A DNA stretch of 64,000 nucleotides from Clostridiales bacterium. Lineage in GTDB: Bacteria; Bacillota; Dehalobacteriia; UBA7702. The stretch is from assembly GCA_040766505.1 (NCBI GenBank), contig JAXGQJ010000006.1, forward strand, positions 35,308 to 99,307, given 5' to 3'. The notes under the pieces were generated by a model. That model was not told the DNA's origin. It saw nothing but the letters and a program-made list of their open reading frames with translations, and searched no databases. The first letter of the stretch is position 1; each line of letters opens with the position of its first letter. Position numbers and translations under genes: made by a program. Shown in pieces: positions 4,315 through 44,803 of the stretch.

Positions 4315-5538
4315 GTGAGAATGCGCGGAAAAAAACAATGGCTGCTCTTCATTTTCTGTTTGCTGCTGGTATTTTTGCCGTTGGAAGGATTGTTGGCGGA
4401 AGAGGCTTTTCACGCCGCCGACCGGCAGGCGGTCATGGCCGAGGTGGAGAAATCCCGGGGCGCCACCGGGGAATCTTTGACCCTTTCCGTTGCCGGTGCG
4501 ATTTTGGCCGAACCGAAAACCGGGGCGGTGCTTTATGAGAAAAATGCCGATGCAAAGCAATATCCCGCCAGTATGACGAAATTGATGACGATGGTCATCG
4601 CTTTAGAGGAAATTCAGGCCGGGCATTTTCGCTATGACGATACGGTGACAACGTCGGAATACGCCGCTTCCATGGGAGGCTCCCAGGCCTATCTGGAACC
4701 CGGGGAAACCCACAGCCTCAAAGAGCTGTTGATCGCCGTCGCCGTCGGTTCCGCCAATGATGCCAGCGTGGCGGTGGCCGAATGGATCGGCGGCAGCAAT
4801 GAGGGCTTCGTGGCGATGATGAATGAGAAGGCCGCGGCTTTGGGCATGGCAAACACCCATTATGTCAATACCCACGGCCTCCATGACGACAACCATTATA
4901 CGACCCCCCGGGACATGATGATCCTGAGCCTCTATGGGCTTCAGGTTCCGGGCATGTTGGAATTTACCTCCATCAAAGAATATGAATTCAGGCCCGAGCC
5001 AAAGCAGCTTCTGCTGTACACTACGACCAAATTGCTTTTTTGGTATGAAGGCACCGACGGCTTAAAGACCGGCACCACGTCACAGGCGGGCCGGAACCTG
5101 GCCGCCACCTGCGAAAAAGACGGCTTGCGCCTCGTCAGCGTCGTGATGGGCGGCGGTACAAAAAACTCTCATTTCAGTGAATCGATGAAGCTGTTGAATA
5201 TGGGCTTCAATCTGTACGAAAACAAAACCATCGTCGCGAAAAAGGAACTGGTGACCCTGGCCTATGTGAACCGGGGCCGGGAGGAAACCGTCAACCTGCT
5301 GGCGGCGGAGGAACGGTCGATGCCGGCGCCCCGGGGGGAGGCGGCAAAACCCGCCATTGAAGTGGTGGTCGACGACGGCATCTTCGCCCCCATCGCCGAG
5401 GGAGACGTTCTCGGCGTCGCGGTTTTGCGGGCCAACGATGTGGAGATCGACCGTACGGAACTGGTCGCCGCCAATGATGTGGCGAAGCAAACCTTCTTTC
5501 AGATGATCGGGCGTTTTATCCGGAGCGTCTTTGTTTAA
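4315..5538 (+). CDS. dacF: D-alanyl-D-alanine carboxypeptidase DacF
   Basis: Signal peptide; SMTK, SAN and KTG motifs; directly upstream of spoIIA. Confidence 0.9.
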   Translation: MRMRGKKQWLLFIFCLLLVFLPLEGLLAEEAFHAADRQAVMAEVEKSRGATGESLTLSVAGAILAEPKTGAVLYEKNADAKQYPASMTKLMTMVIALEEIQAGHFRYDDTVTTSEYAASMGGSQAYLEPGETHSLKELLIAVAVGSANDASVAVAEWIGGSNEGFVAMMNEKAAALGMANTHYVNTHGLHDDNHYTTPRDMMILSLYGLQVPGMLEFTSIKEYEFRPEPKQLLLYTTTKLLFWYEGTDGLKTGTTSQAGRNLAATCEKDGLRLVSVVMGGGTKNSHFSESMKLLNMGFNLYENKTIVAKKELVTLAYVNRGREETVNLLAAEERSMPAPRGEAAKPAIEVVVDDGIFAPIAEGDVLGVAVLRANDVEIDRTELVAANDVAKQTFFQMIGRFIRSVFV

Positions 5539-5547
5539 CCGTTATAT

Positions 5548-5601
5548 TCCGACAAAGGCTCCTTCCTTTCTGCAAAGGAAGCGCGGGCGCCAAAGGAGAA
5601 C
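5548..5601 (+). promoter_or_regulatory. Candidate sigma-H promoter of spoIIA with a near-consensus 0A box
   Basis: AGGA (5576)-18 nt-GAAC (5598); TCCGACA at 5548 is TGTCGGA on the minus strand (one mismatch to TGNCGAA). Confidence 0.5.
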
Positions 5602-5629
5602 TCTTCCCAAAAGAATGGGAGGGGCAGCG

Positions 5630-5947
5630 ATGAGGTTCAAACGCAAAAAGAATGTTCTGAAGGTGGAATTGACCGGTGATCTCGACCTAAAAGCCAGCTC
5701 GCCTTTGAAAGACCAGCTTAGTGCCTATATCGACCGGGAAGGGATACACCACATTTTTTTCGATTTCCGCCATGTGGAATTTATCGACAGCTCGGGATTG
5801 GGCATTTTGCTGTTCTGCTATAAGCGGCTTGCCCCCTATGGCGGCAGCGTGCGGGTGGAAAATATCCGATCCAATGTGGAAATGGTATTCGCGTTGGCGG
5901 GCATGGATAAAATCTTGAAAATCAGCGGCATGGATCGGGGCGCATAA
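5630..5947 (+). CDS. spoIIAA: Anti-sigma-F antagonist SpoIIAA
   Basis: STAS domain GDLD...FIDSSGLG; RBS before ATG 5630; operon position. Confidence 0.92.
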   Translation: MRFKRKKNVLKVELTGDLDLKASSPLKDQLSAYIDREGIHHIFFDFRHVEFIDSSGLGILLFCYKRLAPYGGSVRVENIRSNVEMVFALAGMDKILKISGMDRGA

Positions 5948-5957
5948 GGGGGATACG

Positions 5958-6389
5958 ATGGATACGATTGCCGATAATTATGTGAAACTGACCTTGGCGG
6001 CCCGGGAAGAAAATGTGGCCGTCGCCCGTTTGACCGCGGCAAACCTGGCGGCGGGGATCGGCTTCACCTTCACCGAGGTGGAAGAGATCAAGGTGGCGAT
6101 TTCCGAAGGGGTCTCCAATGCGATGATCCACGGCTACCAGGGAGATGTCAGCCGCCTAGTGGATTTGGTTTTTGTGCTGCGGGGCGGCGAATTGATGGTC
6201 AAGGTGAAGGACGATGGCATCGGCATCGACGATATCGACCGGGCGATGCAGCCGATCTACTCTTCGGCGGAGGATCGGATGGGCCTGGGCTTCGTCTTTA
6301 TGCAATCCTTTATGGATAGCCTTGAGGTAATTTCCAAGCCCGGCCGGGGGACGACATTGGTGATGAAGAAGAAAGCCGGCGGTGGCTGA
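5958..6389 (+). CDS. spoIIAB: Anti-sigma-F factor SpoIIAB
   Basis: EIKVAISEGVSNAMIHGY, DDGIGI, GLGFVFMQSFMD motifs. Confidence 0.95.
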   Translation: MDTIADNYVKLTLAAREENVAVARLTAANLAAGIGFTFTEVEEIKVAISEGVSNAMIHGYQGDVSRLVDLVFVLRGGELMVKVKDDGIGIDDIDRAMQPIYSSAEDRMGLGFVFMQSFMDSLEVISKPGRGTTLVMKKKAGGG

Positions 6390-7101
6390 AATGGTGAATC
6401 CATACCCAAGCTGGAGCGGGGAAGAACAGCAACGCCAATGGCGACTGGCGGCTGAGGGAGACGGCAATGCCCGGAACCGGCTCATCGAGGGGAATCTTCC
6501 CTTGGCGATGGTGGCCGGGCGTTTCGGTTTCTCGCCCCAAGGGCGGGAAGATCTGATCCAGGCAGGCGCCGTCGGTTTGGTACAGGCGGTGGATGGTTTT
6601 GATCCCGAAAGGGGCCGCCGCTTTTCCAGCTATGCCTTGCCTTTCATCCTGGGGGAAATGCGCCGCTGCCGCCGGAACGGCGGCGGTTGGAGCCGGGAAA
6701 CCGCCGCCATCTATCAGAAAGTGGCAGCGGCGCGGGCGGATCACCGCGCCCGCCACCTGGCGGAGCCCACCATGGCGGCATTGGCCGAAATTCTTGGCCT
6801 CGACAGCGAAGCGCTGATCTGGGCGCTGGAACCTCCGGAAATATGGGAAGACGCCGACATTCTCCGGGATCCCACCGCCCAGGAAGCCTTTGAGGGGGTG
6901 GAAAACCGGGAGTGGGTGGCGTCGCTGCTGTCCCATTTGAATGAAAGGGAAAAAGATCTGATACGGAAGCGTTTCTTTCAAAACCTCACCCAACAGGAAA
7001 TTGCCGCCGCTTATCACCTCAGCCAAGCCCAGGTAAGCCGTTTGGAAAGGGGCGCGCTTATCAGGCTTCGCGTTTTGCTCCGCCAATCGCCGCCGGGCTG
7101 A
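6382..7101 (+). CDS. sigF: Sporulation sigma factor SigF (divergent)
   Basis: EDLIQAGAVGL..AVDGFD..RG..FSSYA..ILGEMRR; region 4 TQQEIA..LSQAQVSRLE; third gene of spoIIA. Confidence 0.85.
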   Translation: MAEMVNPYPSWSGEEQQRQWRLAAEGDGNARNRLIEGNLPLAMVAGRFGFSPQGREDLIQAGAVGLVQAVDGFDPERGRRFSSYALPFILGEMRRCRRNGGGWSRETAAIYQKVAAARADHRARHLAEPTMAALAEILGLDSEALIWALEPPEIWEDADILRDPTAQEAFEGVENREWVASLLSHLNEREKDLIRKRFFQNLTQQEIAAAYHLSQAQVSRLERGALIRLRVLLRQSPPG

Positions 7102-34449: not shown

Positions 34450-35243
34450 GGCTTTGCCGCCATCTTCTTTCTTTTGCGGAAGAGGGGGCGCCGCCGATCC
34501 ACTTTCCACGATGCCGAGCAAATTGTCGATCAGCAGCGCCAGCATGTGGCATAGCTTGCGCCCAACAACATGATTTGCATGTGCGGTTGATGTTTTTGCC
34601 GGCGATGATCAGGTCGCCCAAACCGCCGGCGCCGACAAAGGCGGCGATGATGGCGGTGGCGACATTGATAACCACCGCGGTGCGGATGCCGGCAAAGATT
34701 ACGGAAAAGGCCAAGGGCACCTCGATTTTAAAGAGGATTTGCGGCTTCGTCATGCCCATGCCCCGGGCGGCGTCGATGATCGAAGGGGAAACGCCGGTGA
34801 TGCCGGCGATGGTATTGTTTAGAATCGGCAAAGGAGTAGAGCCAAAGGGCAAAGATCGCGGTTTTGGCGCCGATGCCGAGGATGCCGACGAAGAGGGCGA
34901 TTACCGCGAAGCTCGGTATGGTTTGACCGATATTGACGATGGCGACGATAACGCCCGAAGCCGCTTAAACAGCGGCCGGGTCAGGATTAGGCCGAGGGGC
35001 ACCGAAGTGCAAATCGCCAAGGCCGACGAGATGAAAACGAGATAAATTTGCTGCTGCAAGGCGCGCAGCATCCTAGGCAGCGTGAGAAAAATTGGAAACG
35101 ATGCTGTCCGTCGGATGGTGCAATACATACCAGCCGAGAAAAAAGCCGACCGCCAGGATCGCGACCGGCATGATCCAGTCGGCCCAGCCGATGCGATGCG
35201 GCTTTGCGTTTCGCTGTTTGGCCATTTCCGTCATTTCAGTCAT
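34450..35243 (-). CDS. Quaternary-amine ABC transporter permease (frameshifted; 3' end approximate)
   Basis: LPILNNT.AGI..IIDAARGMGM..EVPLA..IFAGIR..GAGGLG. Confidence 0.8.
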
Positions 35244-36335
35244 TTTGATCCACCGCTGGATACAATTGCGCAATTCCGATCAGGGCTTTTACCCTATTTT
35301 GCTCATCGACGCAGAAGATGCTTTTGTCGCCGGTGCTAAAGAGCAGGCTCAAAGCGTCGTATAAGGTCTGCTCTTCCTGCACCACCGCCCGGTGGCGGCG
35401 CATCCGATCCGCCAGGGGCCGGTCATTTTCTTCGTCGCCGACGGGCAAAAGCCCCAGCGGTAAGGCCATTGCCATCGACGATGCCAATGTCGTGCGGCCC
35501 ACGGGCCGTTCTCTGATAACGGCGAGGATGTCCTCGGCCGCCTCGATGGGGAAGAAGGGGGCGCTGGCGCTGAAACCGCCGCAACGCATCAGTGAAAACT
35601 TTTTCAGGATGCGATTTTGCCCCACCAGGCTTTCCACAAATTCATTGGCGGGGCGGGTCAAAATCTCATGGGGGTACCGAATTGCGTACATTTACCGTTT
35701 TGCATAACGGCGATTTTATTGCCCATTTTCACCGCTTCGTCCATATCGTGGGTGACAAAGACGATGGTTTTTTTCAATTTGGCCTGGATGTTCAAAAACT
35801 TATTCTGTAAGCGCCCCCTCGTAATCGGATCCAAGGCGCCGAAAGGTTCGTCCATCAACATGATCGGAGGATCGCCGGCCAGGGCCCTCGCTACGCCGAC
35901 CCGCTGCTTTTGCCCGCCGGATAAGGCCGAAGGCTTCTTTTTTCCATAGCGGGCCGGATCCAGATCGACCAGGCGCAGCATTTCCCCGACCCGCTCGGCG
36001 ATGCGCTTTTTGTCCCATTTTTTTTCGATCGGAACGGTGGCGATGTTTTTCTCGATCGAATAATGGGGGAAAAGGCCCGTATCCTGGATTACATAGCCGA
36101 TGTCGCGCCGGAGCTCAATGGGGTTGATGTTCATAATGTCCTGGCCATTGACGAGAATCCGGCCGCTGGTGATATCGATCAGGCGGTTGATCATCCGCAT
36201 GGTCGTCGTTTTGCCACAGCCCGAAGCGCCGACCAGCACACAGATTTCGCCGGCCCTGATATGAAGGTTTAAATCGTTGACGACGGCCACATCGCTGCCC
36301 TTATACACTTTGTGCACATTTTCCAACCGTATCAT
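35236..36335 (-). CDS. Quaternary-amine ABC transporter ATP-binding protein, OpuCA/OsmV-like (frameshift at about 35680)
   Basis: GASGCGKTT, LSGGQKQRVGVARAL, LMDEPFGALD, VTHDMDEA. Confidence 0.9.
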
Positions 36336-36370
36336 TTCATCACCTGTTTCTTTAGGTAATCAGCGCTTAC

Positions 36371-37004
36371 CTAGGATATTCGTTTCTCCGCCATCCTCTG
36401 CACCATTTGCAGAATTTTATCGACGACGATGGTAATCAAAGCGACTAAAATCGCCGCCACCAGAACCATATTGCGATTGCCCCGGTTGATTCCCTGAAGA
36501 TATAAACGCCGAGGCCGCCGGCGCCGATATAGGCGGCGATGGCGCCGATGCCGATACCGAGGACGACGGCGGTGCGAATGCCGGCAAACACCACCGGCAG
36601 CGCCAATGGGAAGCGAACCTTGAGATTGATCTTCAAGCGGGTGAGGCCTATGCCCCGGGCGGCGTCGATGATCGATTCATCGATATGGGTGGAGGCCCAC
36701 ATAGACATTGCGGATAATGGGGAGCTGGGTGTACATAACGATAACGGAAAATAACCGGCTTCATATTCAGCCCCATCAGCGGCACCAAAAAGGCAAACAG
36801 CGCCAAACTGGGAATGGTCATTAAAATACCGGCGATATACAAAACGATTTCCGCAAGCCTCTCGTTGCGGGTAATCACATAGCCGATCAGAACGCCAAGG
36901 ACGATGGAAATCGACAGGGAGATCAGCACCATCTCGACATGCTGCCCCAGTAAGGTCAGAATCTTGTCTTGTCTTTTCACGATGAACTCGATCAATTCGC
37001 TCAC
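36371..37004 (-). CDS. Quaternary-amine ABC transporter permease (frameshifted)
   Basis: QHVEMV, TIPSLALF, IIDAARGIG..FPLALPVVFAGIR..GAGGLG. Confidence 0.85.
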
Positions 37005-37148
37005 GGCATTTCCCTCTTTGGCATTCTACTCTAAGTATATTTGGCTTTGCCCGAAACATAACTTTGGCGGCAAAAGCCATTGCCGCTTTAAAAACAGCGA
37101 CGATTTTGTGGCGGTGGCACCCAATTTGCGCTTTATAGGAATTTATAG

Positions 37149-37164
37149 AGCAAGATATATGCCA
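37149..37164 (-). promoter_or_regulatory. Sigma54 (-24/-12) promoter of the ABC importer operon
   Basis: Minus strand reads TGGCATATATCTTGCT, which is GG-N10-GC with TGGCA/TTGC flanks. Confidence 0.7.
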
Positions 37165-37457
37165 ATATCTTGTCTGGTTGCGTCTCCCAGTAAAGAAATC
37201 TTGACAGAAACAGCATATGTCCTTGTTAAAACATTTTCCTATTATAGGAAACGGCGTCGCCGGCGGTTTTTTCGGCGACGCCTCTTGCAAAAACAGTGTA
37301 AAAAGGGCAAAAAGAAAAGAAAGTTTGCGCAAATAAATTTTTCATGCAAACTTTCCTTGCCCGCGATCCCGGGGCGCTGAAACGGAAAATGGGCGGGCAT
37401 AAAAAAGCTTCCCTGCCAGAACCGTCGGGGAAGCGCTTTTGGTTTGGGGGTTGGGCT

Positions 37458-38306
37458 TTAGAGGCCGCTCTGTCCTTTCAGTTGAATCCAAACGGAGTTC
37501 CCGGGGTCGGTGGAGGTCCATTCCCCCGACGGGTAAGCGCAGATATACAAATTGCCATTGCTATAAAACAGCGAGCCTACCGCCGGTTCCGTCGTCCAAT
37601 ACCGGCCATTGTGGTCGCTGTCGGTCAGTGTGGCCGCCGCTGTGTTGACCCGCAACAAACCGTTGGTGCGGCGCAGCATTTCCGCCAGTGTGATGTTTTG
37701 GGCGCCGGAGCCCTGGCTGAGATAAGGATTGCGCACCACGACGTAGACGCCGGTGTCGTCTTGGTATACGGTGCCGTCGGCCAGCTGTTTGCCATAATGA
37801 TCGGCGGCATAGGCCTTGTCCTCCGCCCAATTTCCCGATAGCAAAACGGAGCGGCCGCCGCTGTCGGTAAAGGCCGTATCGCCGATATGGTAGGAACCGC
37901 CGGGGTCGCCGTCGGGATCGCCATCGCCGCCGGGATCACCATCGCCGCCGTTTTCACCGCCCTCACCGCCGTGAACGCTGCAGGCGATGGCGCCGTTTTC
38001 CACGCTGTAAACGCCGCCTTCGGGGCAGTTGAATGTCGAAATATCGTCGACATGCGCCGCTTCCCCGGCCAGAAATGATTCCAGCGTGGTTTCGGGATGG
38101 AGCGTCCGGTAATAGCTGAAATACCGTTGCAGCGATTCGCGGTTGATCTCGCAGATCTTGGCTTTCGTGTCGCCGATATAGGCCGCCAGCGTCGGTACGG
38201 CGACGGCCACCAGGATCGCGAGGATCATCAAAACGATGACGATTTCAATCAGCGTAAAACCGCCACTGTCTTTTTGTTGTTTGATGAGGCGATGGATTGT
38301 TTTCAT
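37458..38306 (-). CDS. Type IV pilin-like protein with a C-terminal globular domain
   Basis: Class III signal G|FTLIEIVIVLMILAILVAVAVP; CPEGG..C.VH; Gly/Asp linker. Confidence 0.88.
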   Translation of the reverse strand: MKTIHRLIKQQKDSGGFTLIEIVIVLMILAILVAVAVPTLAAYIGDTKAKICEINRESLQRYFSYYRTLHPETTLESFLAGEAAHVDDISTFNCPEGGVYSVENGAIACSVHGGEGGENGGDGDPGGDGDPDGDPGGSYHIGDTAFTDSGGRSVLLSGNWAEDKAYAADHYGKQLADGTVYQDDTGVYVVVRNPYLSQGSGAQNITLAEMLRRTNGLLRVNTAAATLTDSDHNGRYWTTEPAVGSLFYSNGNLYICAYPSGEWTSTDPGNSVWIQLKGQSGL

Positions 38307-38368
38307 CGCTTTCTATCGCTTTCTATCCCCCGTTCGGATCGGAACCTTTCCAGCCGATCGCCCGCCGT

Positions 38369-40024
38369 TCAAATGCTTTTATTGATCGCGGCGATAAAAG
38401 GTTCGGTTAAATCGGGGTCAAAATGGGTGCCGGAACAGCGGCGGATTTCCGAAAAAGCCTCTTCATAGGAGCGGCAATTCTGATAGGGCCTGCCGGCGGT
38501 CATCGCGTCAAAGGAATCGGCCAGCGTAAGAATGCGGGCCAGCGGATGAATTTCCTCTCCCTTTAAACCTTCGGGGTAACCGGTGCCGTCGAACTTTTCA
38601 TGGTGCTGCAGCACGATATCGACGATGGCGCCAAGGCCGTCCATCTGCCGGATGATCTCGGAACTGTCCCGGGGATGGCGCTTCATCTCTTCCCATTCCT
38701 CCGTGGAAAGGGGCCGGTCGGAAATGAGCGTGCTCTTGGAGACATTGATCTTGCCGATGTCGTGCAGGTAGGCGCCGTAAATCAACAGCATCTTATCGTT
38801 GCTGTCCATGCCGATATAATCGGCGAAAACCTGGCAATAAAGGACGACCCGCTCCGTATGATTGTAGGTATAGCTGTCCCGGGAGTTGATGACCGTGATC
38901 AGGGATTTTACCGAGGTCATTCCGGCCCCCGACGCGCTTTTCAGCGAATTGAACTGATCAAAGATCGAAGCATAAAGCTCCACCCGGTTGCGCTTGAAAA
39001 ATTTGGCCCGATAAAGGGCCGCGTCGGCGCGATTGATCAATTCCAGCGCCGTATCGTTTTCGTCCAGAAGCTCCGCCACGCCGATGGAAACGGTGAAGGA
39101 TCTGTCGGGCAGCAGTTCCCGGCCGGGAAAGTCATAATCGGCAATGTATTTGCGCAGATTGTCGGCGCTTTGGATCGCCGCGTCCCGGTCGGTTTTCGGC
39201 AGGACAACGGCAAATTCATCGCCGCCATAGCGGCAAACATGGTCGCTTTCCAAAAACTTTTCTTTGATGATCAGCGCCACCTGCTTTAAAATTTCATCGC
39301 CTTGCTGGTGCCCGTAGACGTCATTGTAGATTTTAAAATAATCGATGTCGAGCATGATCAGAGACAGGGGCCATTTCTTTTTCTGGCCCATTTCACATTC
39401 CGCCTTGAGGGCCTCATGAAAATAGCGGTGATTGTAAACGCCGGTGAGACCGTCGATGTTCACATAGCGTTTCAATTCCTCGATATGCTCCCGTTCCAGC
39501 TTGGAATAATAGCCTAAAATCCAGGCGATGACGATGTACATGGCGGCAAGGGCGATATCCGATTGAAAATAGGGGTTCACACCCTTCAAATTGTATAAAA
39601 ACAGATCGAGACTGAGGATGATGGCGGAAGAGCCGATGGCGATGGTCATGCCGGTTTTCATGCCCCGTTCGATCGTATAGGCGACAACAAGAAAAATAAA
39701 AAGGAACTTATAATAGCTCGCATTCGCGCCGCTGACCAAAATCGATGCCAAGCAACGGAAAAGAAAACGACGATTTCTATCGTAGTGGCGAATTTCATCT
39801 TCCTTTGGTTATAGTCCATGATCATCCACATGAAGGTGATGATGGAAACGATGGCCAAAGAAATGATGATGGCGGCGAAATTGATATTCTCCAGGGTGCC
39901 TTTGGTGGTGTCGTTGAAGAAAAATTGAAAGAGAGCATACAGCGCAGAAAAATAAGGCCAGGATTTTGATGGTGAAAAACATGATATTGAATTGAGATTG
40001 TTTCGTTTGTTCCAGGTCTTTCAT
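38369..40024 (-). CDS. Membrane-sensor GGDEF + HD-GYP protein (frameshifts in the N-terminal TM region)
   Basis: Several TM helices; DGLTGVYN, DIDYFKIYND.YGH..GD, RYGGDEF, ADAALY; HDIGK, HHEKFDGTGYP, ADSFDAM. Confidence 0.92.
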
Positions 40025-40184
40025 AGTTTTCCCGCCATTTCAGAAATTAAGAAGTTGCTTGGCCCTTTATCGGTGATGGTTAAGAGCGTAAAAAAAGATG
40101 GAAATAAGGCTTCCCAAAACCATCGGGAAATGAATCCCGCTGCTCCGTTCGGGCGCCATCGGTAAATGCAAATGGTGCGACAGC

Positions 40185-40217
40185 CTGAAGAGAGCCGGTA
40201 AAACCGGCTCTCTTCAG
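40185..40217 (-). other. Perfect 15-bp hairpin just after agrD (no U-tract)
   Basis: CTGAAGAGAGCCGGT-AAA-ACCGGCTCTCTTCAG. Confidence 0.75.
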
Positions 40218-40227
40218 CAATCCGTCA

Positions 40228-40353
40228 TTACAGGTCACGCAAGGATTGTGGTTCTTCCGGTTGATAAACCCACCACCAGCAAGCGGAGGTGGCAACCAGG
40301 GTAGCGGCCAGAGTGGCCAAAACGGAGACAACGCCAAACATTCTCTTTTTCAT
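40228..40353 (-). CDS. agrD: Cyclic (thio)lactone autoinducer peptide precursor
   Basis: AGGAGG RBS; MKKRMFGVVSVLATLAATLVATSACWWWVYQPEEPQSLRDL has a leader, a Cys-aromatic core and the QPEEP follower. Confidence 0.93.
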   Translation of the reverse strand: MKKRMFGVVSVLATLAATLVATSACWWWVYQPEEPQSLRDL

Positions 40354-40411
40354 CTGCAAACCCTCCTTTCTTTTTCGATACTGTATGAAAACCATTGATT
40401 CAGACGAAGCA

Positions 40412-41047
40412 TTATTCATATTGAAATTTACGGTCGATGACGGCGATCAATTTCATTCCAGGATTCGTTAGCATGAAGGTTTGCCAGAGAACGGCGAAGG
40501 CGATGCTCGTTGCGAGACAGTGCAAACGGGGGTATTCCCCGGCCAAATAGACCAAAACCATGGCGATGACAAAGTAAAGGGATAAGGTGATAAAAAGGCG
40601 CCGCGCCGCAGCTGTTTGATTTTTTCCGGCCGCAGGATGGGCTTTATTGGGTGTGTCGATGGGGGCCTTTTTATAGGTCAACACCGCCGAAAAAGCGAAA
40701 ACGACATTTCATAAAGCAAAGAGAGCACGAGGGGATTGGCGATGGGGAACAGATACCTTGCCAAAAATCCCATCAGACAAATGGAAAATATGCTGATAAA
40801 CAGGCAGCCGCTGAAGGTTTGAGAGTGGGCGCCCTCCGGTGGCTCTGCGAAATAAGCCGACGGCAAAAAACATCACCAGGTTTTCGGCCCAAAAGCCACC
40901 CAGGATGCCGACGGCGGATATCACGATAAAAATGATGATCATCTGCAGCAAAGCCGCAAGACCATAGGAGACCACAGCCGTTTTTTCCTCGTCATGGCCA
41001 AGATGCATTGCGATGGTTTCCGCGATTTTATTTGCCAGCTTCTCCAT
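40412..41047 (-). CDS. agrB: Accessory gene regulator B peptide-processing protease (frameshifted)
   Basis: MEKLANKIA..AVVSYGL; reconstructed RRATGGAHSQTFSGC (catalytic His/Cys); AP.DTPNK; LWQTFMLT..G. Confidence 0.9.
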
Positions 41048-41545
41048 TGCGCGCTTCCTTCTTTGTCCTTTTCATGCGGAAACGGTAGACGGTGGTGACA
41101 ATGCCCAACATGTGATGATATTGGTTGGGATGCCGATCAGCGATTTGCTGATTTTGCCGCTGATGGTGTCTCCGCTCTTGTATCGTATTGATCATATCGC
41201 TGCCGAAGATTAAGTTAAGAAGTCCGTAAATTTATAGCTTCCGCTAAAATAATAAGAACCGAGGTGAGCAAAACAGCCAAAACCGTTGGATAGGATGAGG
41301 TTTTAAAGATAAAGATCGCAATAACGCTGAAGATCATCATGATGAGGATGGTATGGAAGCCAAAACTGATCGCGTCGATTTGCCGGACGCCAAACAGAAA
41401 CCAAAGAAAAGAGCAAAATACAGAGAAAGAAATCCTTCTTTGAAAATGGTTTTCCGTTGAAAGCCGCAATGGCTATTACAAACCCCACAGCCTGCAGCAC
41501 ATAACCAAACAAGCCGTCAACTATGAAGAGCTTAACATAATCCAT
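41028..41545 (-). CDS. Stand-alone multi-TM protein overlapping the agrB start (frameshifted)
   Basis: MDYVKLFIVDGLFGYVLQAVGFV..; VRQIDAISFGFHTIL..LIILAE; no cytoplasmic catalytic domain. Confidence 0.7.
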
Positions 41546-41557
41546 AATGTTTTCCTT

Positions 41558-42121
41558 TTACTCTTTGGCTTTTTGTTTATCCCGGTTGACGCTTTTGATG
41601 GTGTAAAAAACAATCAGGGTGATAAATGCGTGAATGAACAGGTCGCCGACGCTCATAATGGAAAAACCGGTATCGATATAGTCCGCCAGAACATTCAGCT
41701 TTGTGCTGCCTGTCATTGGGATGTGGACATTGTCGATGCCCTGGCCCAATGCATCGTTACGGTAATAACGGGTGACCTTGGACAGGGTTGGCAATACCGG
41801 CATCTTTCCGCCATTGGCGGCCATGACGATACGGTTCAGCATACTGCCAATCAAGACGAGACCGGAGCCAAACAAGGCGGGCCCAAAGAGGCGTCTCCTG
41901 ACAATGGGAACCAAAAAGCAATTCAGGATGAAAGCCATCTGAATTTTTGATGCATACTGTACGTAGCTGTAATTGTCAAAGAAAACACTAACTTGAAAGA
42001 ACAGATAGACACATATCTGACGATAAAAAGTGGATAAAGATCAAAAGTTTTAAATATACACAGTAGATTGTACTTTTTGAGTACCTGCTATTAAGAATGC
42101 GGTGAAGATAAATAAAAGCAT
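41558..42121 (-). CDS. DUF5317-family membrane protein (5' part frameshifted)
   Basis: G..LNRIVMAANGGKMPV, H......LNVLADYID.G.SIMSVGDLFI. Confidence 0.8.
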
Positions 42122-42177
42122 CGGATCAAAGTTCCCTTCTCAGTACAGAAATATGTACGTATAAGAAAATCATAATC

Positions 42178-42206
42178 ATTATAACAATAATGTGATTATT
42201 TTGCAA
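42178..42206 (-). promoter_or_regulatory. Strong extended -10 sigma-A promoter of the DUF5317-agrBD operon
   Basis: Minus strand TTGCAA-17 nt-TATAAT with TGn upstream of the -10, in an AT-rich tract. Confidence 0.7.
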
Positions 42207-42245: not shown

Positions 42246-44803
42246 TTAGGAAGTTAAGATTTCAATCAGGGCATGGGCCGCCATAGGGTCAAACTGGGTG
42301 CCGGCATTGGCCCGGATTTCGGCGATGGCTTCCCGCTTCGACATTGCGGCGCGGTAGAGCCGGTTTTCCGTCATTGCGTCATAGGCGTCGACCACCGCGA
42401 GTATGCGGGAAAGGAGGGGAATTTCCGTTCCCTTCAATCCCGGGATAACCGTAACCGTCCCAGCGTTCATGATGGCAAAGGACGTATTCGGCGATCTTTA
42501 GATCCGGGCAGGACATGATGATTTGGCTGATTTCCGAATGGCGCTTCATGATTTCCCATTCCTCTTTTGTCAATTTGCCGGGCTTGTTCAGGATACGGTC
42601 GTCGATGCCCACCTTGCCGATATCGTGCAATAGCGCGGTAAAGCTCCAGCTCATCAAGGCTTTGCTGGGAAAGGTTCAGCTTCATGCCCAAAAGTGCGCG
42701 ATAGGATGATCATCCGCTCGGAATGTTCCTCCGTTTCTTGGCTGCGGGCATACATCGTCGCCATAATCGAGGAGAGGATGGCATTGTGGGCGCTGTTGCG
42801 GTTGAGGAGTTTTCTGCGGGCCAGGGCTTCCGTGGCTCTTTTGATGGTGTCGTCGATTTCTTCTTCCAGATTGCCGGCAGCTCCAGCCCATGGACAGGCT
42901 GATGGTGCCGGCGCCCTTTTTCTTGTCGGCACGTTCATTTTGTAGCGCGGTGCGGATCATGCGCTGGATGGCCGCGGCGGTTTCGTTGTCGGTATCGGGG
43001 AGAAGGGATGGTAAAATCGATCGCCGCCGGTGCGAGCAAGGATGTCGCTGTCCCTGCAACAGGAAAGCAGGATATTGGCGGCTTCCTGGATGATTCTATC
43101 CCCTTCCTGTAGGCCGAAAGCATCGTTTATCAGCTTCAGGCCATTGATATCGGCGATGACCGACAGCGGGAAAACCCGGAACCAGCCGACCCGCTTTTTT
43201 GTCAAAATAAAAAGCGCGGCTGTGCAAACCGGTGATGCAGTCATAATCGCTTAGATATTCGATGCGCCGCTGCTGCTCTTGGGTGGTGATGTCGATGATG
43301 ATGCCTTCCAAAGCCTCAATGCGGTTTTGTTCATTGTAGACGCCCTGGCCCGCCTCCATCACCCATTTTACTCTGCCGTCGGCGGTGGTGATCTGGTATT
43401 CCAAACGCAGGGTGGTGCGGGTGGCGACGGCTTTTTTCCAGGCCTCCCAAATCATTTGGCGGTGCTTGGGCACAATCAGGCTATTATAGGTCACAACGCG
43501 ATTGTGCAGCAGATCCTCGGGGCGATAGCCGGTGAGGGCCAGGCAGCCGTCGGATACGAAACACATCGTCCAATCCTCGTCATATTTGCAGCGATAGGCT
43601 ATGCCGGAAAAGGGAAAGGCAAATGGCGCGGCTGCGCTCGCTTTCCAGCAGATTGCGCTCGCTTTCCATCTGCCCGGTGATGTCCTCGGCGAGGCAAGAG
43701 AGATAGCGATCGGTGCCGCCTTCGTCCGATTGCAGCCTGGTGAGGATCATATGCACCCAAACGGTGGAACCGTCGGGCTTCACGATAGCTGTTTTTCTAA
43801 AGGTATAGCCGTCGGTTTCCCCGGCCTTGAAACGGGCAAACCGTTTGATGCTGTCTTGTAAATCGTCGGGGTGGGTAAATTCCGTCCAATCCAGCTTGCC
43901 AAGCTCTTTCGGCGCCCTGCCCGGCGATGGCCTCAAAGGCCCGGTTGATATGGGAAACCAGCCGATAGTCCCGGCCGACGGCGATGCCGACGGGAACTTG
44001 GTCGAAGATCGTCGTGGTGTTGGTGATTTCTCGCTTTTCTTCCAGATTGTGGTTGATCGAAGTCAGGTATGCGTTTTTTCTCCATACCGAAGAGAGGACA
44101 AAAGCAGAAAGAGGAAACAGAAGGCGATGACGATGACTTACCCCATTTGAAGCAGGGCATTTTGCTGCCAGAGGGCGCCTTCGTATTCGGTGGCGAGGGC
44201 CGCGATAACGTCGCCGGTTTTCGGATTATGGATCGGAACCAGCACTTGAACGATGCCCTTTTCATGGTCGGCGGCGTGGACGGTGGCGGCGCTTTGTGAA
44301 AACGGAACGGCGAAAGCCGCCTCCGTCTCCGGATCCCAACGGGGTAAGGTGGGGTTTCTCCACTTTGTGGGGCCGGCGCCGACGAGAAGCGTCGCCGCGC
44401 CGTCCTTCATCGTATAAATGTAGGCATATTGGATGCCGCCGTTTATAGATCGGTATTGCCTCAGCTTGTCCCATAATTTTTGGTATGCTTCGCCCTCTTC
44501 TCCGCCGCTTGCGGCGATAAGCCCCGTTAGAAGCTCCTGTGGAAGCAGCGACGCCGTCGAATGGCCCAGTTGGATGGCGGCCTGTTTTTGTTGCTCCATC
44601 GTGCTTTGCCAAGTATGGCAACCATAGGCGAAACCGCCCAACAATAAAAGCAAAGCGCCGATGGACAGCATGGCCTTGATCAGCCGGGTTTCTTTAGCGG
44701 GCAAGGATCTTTTGGGTTTTTCTCTCGGTGCTGGTTTTCGCATCAAACGCTCACTTTCATTTTTATGAGAAATCGCGTTCCCGAAACGCCGGAGCAGGTT
44801 CAT
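42246..44803 (-). CDS. Extracellular sensor-PAS-PAS-GGDEF-HD-GYP protein (many frameshifts; start 44803 or 44743)
   Basis: TM plus extracellular domain; THPDD..KPDGS.VW; [14 protein letters not shown]; [27 protein letters not shown]; [23 protein letters not shown]. Confidence 0.85.

Follow-up and report, generated by a model that had tools for sequence, protein, structure and literature searches.

The stretch of DNA analysed here, a window of 64,000 nucleotides (nt) from a draft assembly of a Clostridiales bacterium, carries on its minus strand an agr-type peptide quorum-sensing locus in which the gene after agrD encodes a predicted sensor with six transmembrane helices (6TM), a GGDEF domain and an HD-GYP domain, that is, an enzyme of cyclic di-GMP (c-di-GMP) turnover. 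The locus is one copy of a widespread clostridial agr-type cassette with the order DUF5317, small membrane protein, agrB, agrD and 6TM sensor. The 6TM domain is a modular input domain in the position of AgrC, since it is also found fused to PAS-HisKA kinases directly after agrD. We put the probability that the sensor responds to the peptide of its own cassette, directly or through the small membrane protein, at roughly 55%. Gene neighbourhood and domain architecture are what suggest such a route from peptide to c-di-GMP, the binding of the peptide, the direction in which c-di-GMP would change and the outputs all being inferred.

The source assembly comprises 1.94 Mb in 46 contigs and is 75% complete and 1% contaminated, the window being part of its contig 43. 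The full cassette order is present on one strand and with short gaps. A preliminary description of this DNA, made from the letters alone, had given the gene content and the minus-strand order correctly, judging from Pfam scores, AgrD identity and the order of the open reading frames (ORFs). The five genes, with protein lengths in amino acids (aa), are:

41558 to 42121, minus strand: DUF5317 membrane protein gene (PF17248, 70.2 bits on 41558-41938; at least three frames)
41028 to 41545, minus strand: gene of a small membrane protein of no named family (at least three frames)
40412 to 41047, minus strand: agrB, AgrD-processing membrane peptidase (PF04647, three frames)
40228 to 40353, minus strand: agrD, 41-aa autoinducing-peptide precursor (predicted ring CWWWV, Cys plus four residues, then YQPEEP)
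38369 to 40024, minus strand: 6TM-GGDEF-HD-GYP sensor gene in the AgrC position (GGDEF 148.3 bits, HD_5 122 bits; three frames)

DUF5317 scored 70-73 bits on PF17248 (cut-off 25), and the profile match reached 42016 in an open frame; by comparison with intact relatives the gene probably starts near 42121 and not at 41938. The three ORFs of agrB covered positions 1-68, 68-106 and 118-185 of PF04647 (37, 24.3 and 27.2 bits, respectively). Read through the frame breaks the window copy scored 66.9 bits, and an intact relative of 209 aa scored 128.4 bits. The window AgrD peptide itself gave no Pfam match; it is 83% identical to the AgrD of a same-genus genome, with the invariant C and QP..P, and the same-genus peptide scored 52.1 bits on TIGR04223 (cut-off 19). 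The motifs GGDEF, HDIGK and HHEKFDGTGYP are present in the window sensor, and there is no RxxD inhibitory site in its copy of the GGDEF domain. Among 34 sensors compared, GG[DE]EF was present in all 34, HD in 32 and GYP in 33. As both catalytic signatures are kept, the protein is probably a two-way c-di-GMP enzyme, the balance of which would be set by the membrane domain.

A word-indexed search with the first ~190 residues of the sensor found 19 protein clusters. Sixteen of these had both GGDEF and HD-GYP (15 of 546-572 aa and the 456-aa piece of the window itself), while the remaining three, of 321-466 aa, had GGDEF only. A profile of the transmembrane (TM) domain, A1, was built from ten domains and searched against one-genome-per-species contigs, which gave 62 loci and among them 49 real matches; these 49 were probed by tblastn with same-genus proteins, and misses were inspected individually. 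AgrB was encoded directly upstream of the sensor gene in 44 of the 49 loci, AgrD between agrB and the sensor in 41, and DUF5317 further upstream in 30. An ORF for a small membrane protein of 149-185 aa preceded agrB in 40 of 43 loci, and the distance from the agrD stop to the sensor start was mostly ~55-100 nt. Five loci had no AgrB, two of them lying at contig ends (L045, where agrD is still visible, and L058). The counts include kin and are not independent: L017 is the same contig as the same-genus genome G001, and L048 and L049 are near-identical. The neighbourhood survey proposed in the preliminary description thus came out strongly positive, in these loci as well as in the sample of 53 genomes treated below (12 of 13 strong matches).

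The AgrD peptides of the 41 loci share ...SAC-xxxx-(Y/H)QPEEP.., with four variable residues after the Cys; among them is the Clostridium perfringens ring CLWFT, which we take to be the published peptide. According to record titles the cassette is carried by Clostridium perfringens, C. punense, C. sardiniense, C. nitritogenes and C. chromiireducens. Other carriers belong to Christensenellaceae, Peptococcaceae, Lachnospiraceae, Anaerofustis, Tissierellia, Peptostreptococcaceae, Romboutsia and Paraclostridium, and further ones to Caldicoprobacterales, Thermosediminibacterales, Desulfoscipio and one Spirochaetia bin. A locus special to its genome is therefore not what the window holds, as the order recurs across Clostridia and includes the C. 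perfringens agr locus.

An AlphaFold model of the membrane domain, computed from 34 sequences, consisted of six long helices (predicted local distance difference test score, pLDDT, 84.5; predicted template modelling score, pTM, 0.77). According to our own reading of the positive-inside rule both ends of the domain would face the cytoplasm. The first outer loop was its most variable part. In a fold search against the PDB nothing matched the model at E<=0.001, the best hit being the membrane cyclase ImcA (TM-score 0.49, E=2). The sole family resemblance was to the PilS-like 6TM family PF25323, to which 16 of the 34 members gave collinear matches at E<1, all below the cut-off of 27 bits; when ten members were scored, four matched at 17.2-23.4 bits. 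DUF4118 was matched by six of the 34. The range of 39470-40024 proposed earlier for the TM domain of the window crosses two frameshifts that had been missed.

In a search of 1.84 billion representative proteins, 382 clusters matched the 6TM profile at E<=1e-3, and 193 of the clusters did so at E<=1e-10. Ten hits of differing size were analysed with Pfam, and nine of them had histidine-kinase domains: three were 6TM-PAS-HisKA-HATPase_c proteins, five were 6TM-HisKA-HATPase_c proteins, and P0111 (451 aa) had PAS and HisKA only. The tenth, P0126 (756 aa), was a 6TM-GGDEF-HD-GYP protein with an extra C-terminal MEDS domain. From the Clostridiaceae genomes treated below, 20 kinase-form regions were selected among the highest-listed matches and are thus no random sample; 14 of them had small protein, agrB and agrD directly upstream, and in a fifteenth agrD is visible where the contig ends. 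The locus at L100:2416-6172 (minus strand) has DUF5317, split in two pieces, then small protein, agrB, agrD of the QPEEP type and a 6TM-PAS-kinase, and is an output swap inside one cassette type. Two tandem arrays (L081:2439-13324 and L082:2439-13176) open with a cassette of the c-di-GMP type, continue with a small protein and a 6TM-kinase, and end with another cassette, of small protein, agrB, agrD and 6TM-kinase, the AgrD of which is different.

The association was also present in Clostridiaceae, where 81 of 149 scored genomes had a 6TM match at E<=1e-8. In these genomes a listed AgrB lay less than 1.5 kb upstream of at least 45 of the 54 places with full-profile matches and of at least 28 of the 59 kinase-type places, and at least 72 of the 150 best-scoring AgrB places adjoined a 6TM sensor. 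All these counts are floors, as 74 weaker AgrB matches fell outside the listing, two genomes were unscored and several others limited. Also the split of the two forms by profile end is imperfect: G087, counted as full-profile, is a kinase form.

The 6TM sensor and the AgrC/AgrA genes marked two separate kinds of agr locus. In a sample of the window's class, consisting of 53 genomes that were all at least 90% complete except the source genome, AgrB was found in 17 genomes, at 24 loci. A sensor-domain profile, A2, gave 13 matches at E<1e-10, and 12 of these adjoined AgrB. The other 12 AgrB loci had a HATPase_c_5 and/or LytTR gene nearby, mostly within ~3 kb, the sole such match of G024 lying ~5 kb from AgrB. 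None of the 24 loci had both a 6TM sensor and AgrC/LytTR genes, a strict exclusivity that is expected if the sensor replaces AgrC.

Four high-quality carriers of the sample had no LytTR match anywhere in the genome, namely G052 (91% complete), G016 (100%), G020 (96%) and G026 (99%), and G052 also had no HATPase_c_5 match at E<=1e-5. No LytTR match was found either in an Anaerofustis carrier genome outside the sample. In the closest complete relative (1.8 Mb) the only LytTR protein was one of 169 aa without a receiver domain (L079:3013-4210). A longer ORF with a hydrophobic middle part (L079:3128-4210) overlaps it. The window contains no LytTR and no AgrC-type ATPase, its sole HATPase_c protein being an anti-sigma kinase of 143 aa, and the earlier statement that the 64 kb hold no LytTR regulator was borne out.

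The sensor is read as the receiver of the signal because it takes the place of AgrC, is found almost only there, excludes AgrC/AgrA and swaps outputs. In the proposed mechanism AgrB would process AgrD into a small thiolactone, with a predicted ring here of Cys and four aromatic or hydrophobic residues. The six-helix membrane domain would receive this peptide, alone or with the small membrane protein, and would shift the balance between synthesis and breakdown of c-di-GMP. Cell density would in this way be turned into a second messenger without a two-component phosphorelay.

Several results weigh against this mechanism. Three sensor loci are truly without agrBD (L046, L053 and L061); in one of these, from Geosporobacter ferrireducens (L046, 9418-11605), the gene of a small membrane protein stands directly before the 6TM-GGDEF-HD-GYP gene, a unit that may be a receiver retained without its own signal. 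In Clostridiaceae at least 31 of the 59 kinase-form places had no listed AgrB upstream. Compared by profile with 12 AgrC sensor domains, the 6TM domain showed no similarity (hhalign probability 0.7%), and it is without a solved structural relative, its resemblance to the PilS-like family staying below threshold. LytTR genes occurred elsewhere in the genome in seven of the 11 high-quality carriers of the 53-genome sample, and in five of these seven (G040, G053, G034, G028 and G018) kinase-LytTR pairs were matched by coordinates, so that a distant kinase could be the receptor everywhere. In the source genome PF04397 (LytTR/AgrA) and PF14501 (HATPase_c_5/AgrC) had no match, an absence that is weak evidence since the genome is 75% complete. 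Finally, the C. perfringens peptide is reported to act through VirS/VirR, a published receptor. Accordingly, the kinase-free circuit proposed in the preliminary description cannot be general.

Covariation did not favour the sensor over its neighbours. Across 34 loci the distance between peptide rings tracked the distance between TM domains when the catalytic domains were controlled for (partial r 0.24-0.31, p ~0.002). At the 26 loci with all five genes the values for the TM domain, AgrB and the small protein were much the same (partial r 0.14-0.16), and covariation thus does not single out the sensor, which also counts against it. Partial Mantel tests on related sequences, such as these, overstate significance. 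A complex prediction of the TM domain with AgrD gave a score of 0.00; it was run without controls and has no weight either way.

The strongest alternative is that the enzyme, although linked to agr, does not receive the peptide, which would be read by a kinase elsewhere, as by VirS, while the 6TM protein would sense something else in the membrane or simply be co-expressed. It could then sense how much AgrD precursor or leader is present, or some partner protein, as PilS senses pilin, or co-expression itself could couple c-di-GMP with the quorum state. Such an arrangement agrees with the missing similarity to AgrC sensor domains, with the sub-threshold collinear PilS-like matches of 16 of the 34 TM domains, PilS being a sensor of a membrane protein and not of a soluble ligand, and with the sensors that have the small protein but no agrBD (L046, the middle unit of L081, and L098). 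It is further favoured by the published role of VirS/VirR in C. perfringens, which has the same cassette. The carriers without any LytTR regulator and the strict exclusivity with AgrC/AgrA-type loci speak against it, as does the presence of the same domain on kinases directly after agrD, which mirrors the order agrB-agrD-agrC, and we regard this alternative as rather unlikely.

Another possibility is that the small membrane protein is the peptide-binding subunit, resembling an AgrC sensor without its kinase and passing the signal within the membrane to the 6TM protein. Its profile aligned with 12 AgrC N-terminal domains at an hhalign probability of 43% (E 2.5e-4, 108 columns), covering the N-terminal half of the AgrC sensor domains, while four control pairs gave 0.3-0.7%; the 43% is not significant and the AgrC alignment used was poor (27% mean column identity). 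In both cassette types its gene lies before agrB, and it stands also before the sensors without agrBD in L046, the middle unit of L081 and L098. The position before agrB would, however, equally suit peptide maturation or export. No consistent Pfam or NCBIfam family was found for the protein, as no match is common to more than three of the 34 members (E 0.015 or weaker), with a single member matching AgrC at E 0.19, and its neighbours in the protein atlas were all 'hypothetical'. Neither were forms fused to a kinase found, nor any longer fusion proteins containing the small membrane protein or DUF5317, which is weak evidence. In sum the small membrane protein may act together with the sensor or in maturation, and that it binds the peptide in place of the sensor seems unlikely to us.

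The model of DUF5317 had a pLDDT of 90.8 and no PDB fold match at E<=0.001. Its invariant residues are N94, N101, H131, D145, D148, S155 and D158 (numbering of L018; L018:8065-8613). Of the five cassette proteins it had the strongest covariation with the AgrD ring (partial r 0.32, p 0.001). DUF5317 is a possible peptide maturation enzyme.

In the window agrB is split over three frames, the sensor gene over three, and the genes of the small membrane protein and DUF5317 over at least three each. Frameshifted genes are common also elsewhere in the window, including an ABC transporter ATPase and permease (35236-37332) and the PAS-PAS-GGDEF-HD-GYP gene at 42246-44803. In the rest of the genome GGDEF matched 12 times, at about nine gene places besides that of the sensor of the unit, and three or four of these places have internal stops. 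In the same-genus genome G001 the whole unit was found at 67-71% DNA identity but broken at different places: agrB and the membrane domain of the sensor are intact there, and the HD-GYP part is split.

Short contigs from four wastewater or digester metagenome runs, belonging to three named studies, matched the unit at 90-100% identity, mostly at least 95%. They differed from the window by insertions and deletions (indels) at 39753, 40592, 40643, 40832, 41111, 41179, 41226 and 41917-41922, which are the break sites. In agrB they had one base fewer at 40832, two fewer at 40592 and one fewer at 40643, and the one-base loss at 40832 brings the conserved His...Cys stretch of AgrB back into frame. 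In the sensor gene position 39753, at one of the frameshifts, is followed by an additional A in one independent contig; in DUF5317 the difference amounts to three bases in all at 41917-41922, and the gene of the small membrane protein is affected at 41111, 41179 and 41226. Some of the indel sites are in short homopolymer runs and others are not. All of the contigs are below a depth of 7 and hence weak singly, the weight lying in the coincidence of the indels with the breaks. Because breaks occur genome-wide, G001 is broken elsewhere and the independent contigs restore the frames, the frameshifts in the window are most likely assembly errors and the cassette is probably intact in the organism; the source assembly seems error-prone as a whole. 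That the locus consists of decaying pseudogenes without function in the source organism, as the at least ten frame breaks across its five genes might indicate, is highly improbable in view of the broken genes spread over the whole window and genome (35236-37332; three or four of about nine GGDEF places), the different break places of the same-genus relative, the contigs of three other studies that restore the frames exactly at the break sites, and the existence of intact sensor relatives of ~551 aa.

Further features adjoin the five genes or lie between them:

42178 to 42206, minus strand: promoter-like site TTGCAA-17-TATAAT with TG before the -10 box (consensus match only, 10 of 12 positions)
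42246 to 44803, minus strand: PAS-PAS-GGDEF-HD-GYP gene, upstream neighbour outside the core unit (at least six frame pieces)
40185 to 40217, minus strand: perfect hairpin of 15 base pairs after agrD (within a fold of z = -3.7)
37458 to 38306, minus strand: prepilin-type protein of 282 aa (N_methyl 29.2 bits, N-terminal methylation motif)

The site at 42206-42178, described earlier as a strong sigma-A promoter, was the top match of the region and lies ~57 nt 5' of the probable DUF5317 start. The scan found 12 promoter-like sites, compared with 6.2 +/- 2.7 in shuffled sequence, and a consensus match by itself therefore proves little. The hairpin reported after agrD is likewise present, but it has no U tract and was not listed as terminator-like in the terminator scan. 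A second GGDEF/HD-GYP match upstream of DUF5317, as in the window, was found in four of the 49 loci (L025, L028, L029 and L038); in L061, where DUF5317 is missing, such a match lies upstream of the weak TM match. The 143-aa anti-sigma kinase mentioned above, of the HATPase_c_2 type, stands in a row with a STAS anti-anti-sigma factor before it and a sigma-70-family factor after it (window 5531-7101, plus strand), an arrangement resembling the spoIIAA-spoIIAB-sigF operon.

The pilin had been put forward as a possible output of the circuit. In 43 of 44 other loci no pilin-like ORF was present within 4 kb downstream, the sole case lying 3.7 kb away, and the same-genus relative has no pilin downstream of the sensor. 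This speaks against the proposal, and the pilin is a neighbour and not part of the conserved unit. Nor did any gene family recur downstream of the sensor in more than four of the 44 loci with at least 1.5 kb there. The prepilin-type protein has a Gly/Asp/Pro-rich repeat stretch in its middle, and among the ORFs adjoining its gene no pilus assembly genes were seen (the wider window was not searched for them).

As to other possible targets of c-di-GMP, no PilZ domain was matched in the genome. Rfam at gathering scores detected no RNA family in the whole window and hence no riboswitch in the 300-nt leader region. The c-di-GMP-I and -II riboswitches had no match in the genome; the class I control was silent as well, and this result is without weight.

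In Firmicutes the main systems of peptide quorum sensing are those of the agr type, and the receptors of many clostridial agrBD loci are unknown or partly known. The survey names one conserved candidate receiver in the AgrC position, which exists in two forms, one with c-di-GMP domains and one with a kinase. Should this candidate respond to the peptide, the two would make a direct peptide-to-second-messenger quorum circuit in Gram-positive bacteria, and would offer simple handles linking cell density to biofilm formation and sporulation. We further hold it possible, at somewhat under even odds, that the 6TM domain is the missing receptor module of the orphan clostridial agrBD loci, with GGDEF-HD-GYP enzymes or PAS-HisKA kinases without a partner regulator as outputs, so that the peptide would lead to c-di-GMP or to orphan-kinase phosphorylation across much of Clostridia, C. 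perfringens included. Such a circuit could account for agr effects on biofilm formation and sporulation, the routes of which are left open in the sections of the literature covered.

The literature scope was the full text of papers including PMC2706048, PMC4963840, PMC8043184, PMC7492741, PMC3406050, PMC9229411 and PMC8748961, in the sections covered, with subscription papers and supplements outside it. Within this scope agrBD loci without agrCA in clostridia, the four-gene operon of C. perfringens, and kinases without AgrA beside agrD are already known. Neither the coupling of agrBD to a 6TM-GGDEF-HD-GYP protein nor the 6TM domain common to the enzyme and kinase forms was found there. DUF5317 was not found as a part of agr loci and was named in no full-text paper searched. 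Both agrD and HD-GYP are named in eight papers, and going by titles and abstracts none of these deals with the linkage.

The C. perfringens Agr system is the closest comparison. Its operon CPE1563-CPE1562-agrB-agrD is co-transcribed, agrD lying between CPE1561 and CPE1560 (PMC2706048, in the part consulted), and reviews, in the passages covered, give no known function for the two upstream genes. In strain v20 (L027) DUF5317, small protein, AgrB and AgrD are followed by a 6TM-GGDEF-HD-GYP gene, and judging from gene order DUF5317 would correspond to CPE1563, the small membrane protein to CPE1562 and the c-di-GMP enzyme to CPE1560. The C. perfringens autoinducing peptide is, according to the same literature, a thiolactone of five residues, and the window locus is like the C. 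perfringens one in gene order and in having an AgrD with a 5-residue ring followed by QPEEP. It differs in that the C. perfringens operon is described, in the papers as far as covered, as consisting of four genes with a signal passing via VirS/VirR, while neither a LytTR regulator nor an AgrC-type kinase was found in the source genome of the window, which is 75% complete. Further C. perfringens receptors are allowed for by the VirS authors themselves (discussion of PMC7492741). In the searched parts of the C. perfringens agr papers c-di-GMP terms are absent and the gene downstream of the operon is not discussed. A band of ~75 kDa in a C. perfringens pull-down (unshown data of its authors) was considered as a candidate for the sensor; the orthologue has 562 aa and 64.7 kDa, and there was no firm match.

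The agrBDCA system of Staphylococcus aureus is similar in that AgrB and AgrD yield a thiolactone peptide and the gene of a polytopic membrane sensor follows agrD. In contrast to it, the sensor here is no HPK10 kinase, its membrane domain has no AgrC profile similarity, and there is no AgrA. The predicted output is c-di-GMP turnover instead of phosphotransfer, and the cassette has genes of two additional membrane proteins further upstream.

Agr systems that are incomplete, the proposed receptor being a neighbouring kinase that lacks a cognate regulator, have been described, in the papers as far as covered, for C. autoethanogenum (AgrC1/AgrC2) and C. botulinum (agr-1/agr-2), and the authors call the C. 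botulinum agr pathway undefined. The gene order of C. autoethanogenum differs from that of the cassette, and the covered text of these papers has no c-di-GMP terms. In C. difficile agr is linked to c-di-GMP genes through AgrA (PMC3754575, in the part consulted). The kinase forms of the 6TM sensor are the same sort of system as the clostridial agr loci without AgrA. Kinase genes beside the C. botulinum agr loci may, reportedly, be shown already by Cooksley et al. in 2010.

Quorum signals and c-di-GMP are joined in Gram-negative bacteria by the signal DSF, with RpfC and the HD-GYP protein RpfG, and by BDSF, the receptor of which, RpfR, has GGDEF and EAL domains. As in the cassette proposed here, a quorum signal controls a c-di-GMP enzyme in these systems, and in RpfR receptor and enzyme are one protein. 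Their signals are, however, fatty acids read by a kinase or by a cytoplasmic PAS domain, whereas here a secreted cyclic peptide would be read by the membrane domain of a Gram-positive enzyme.

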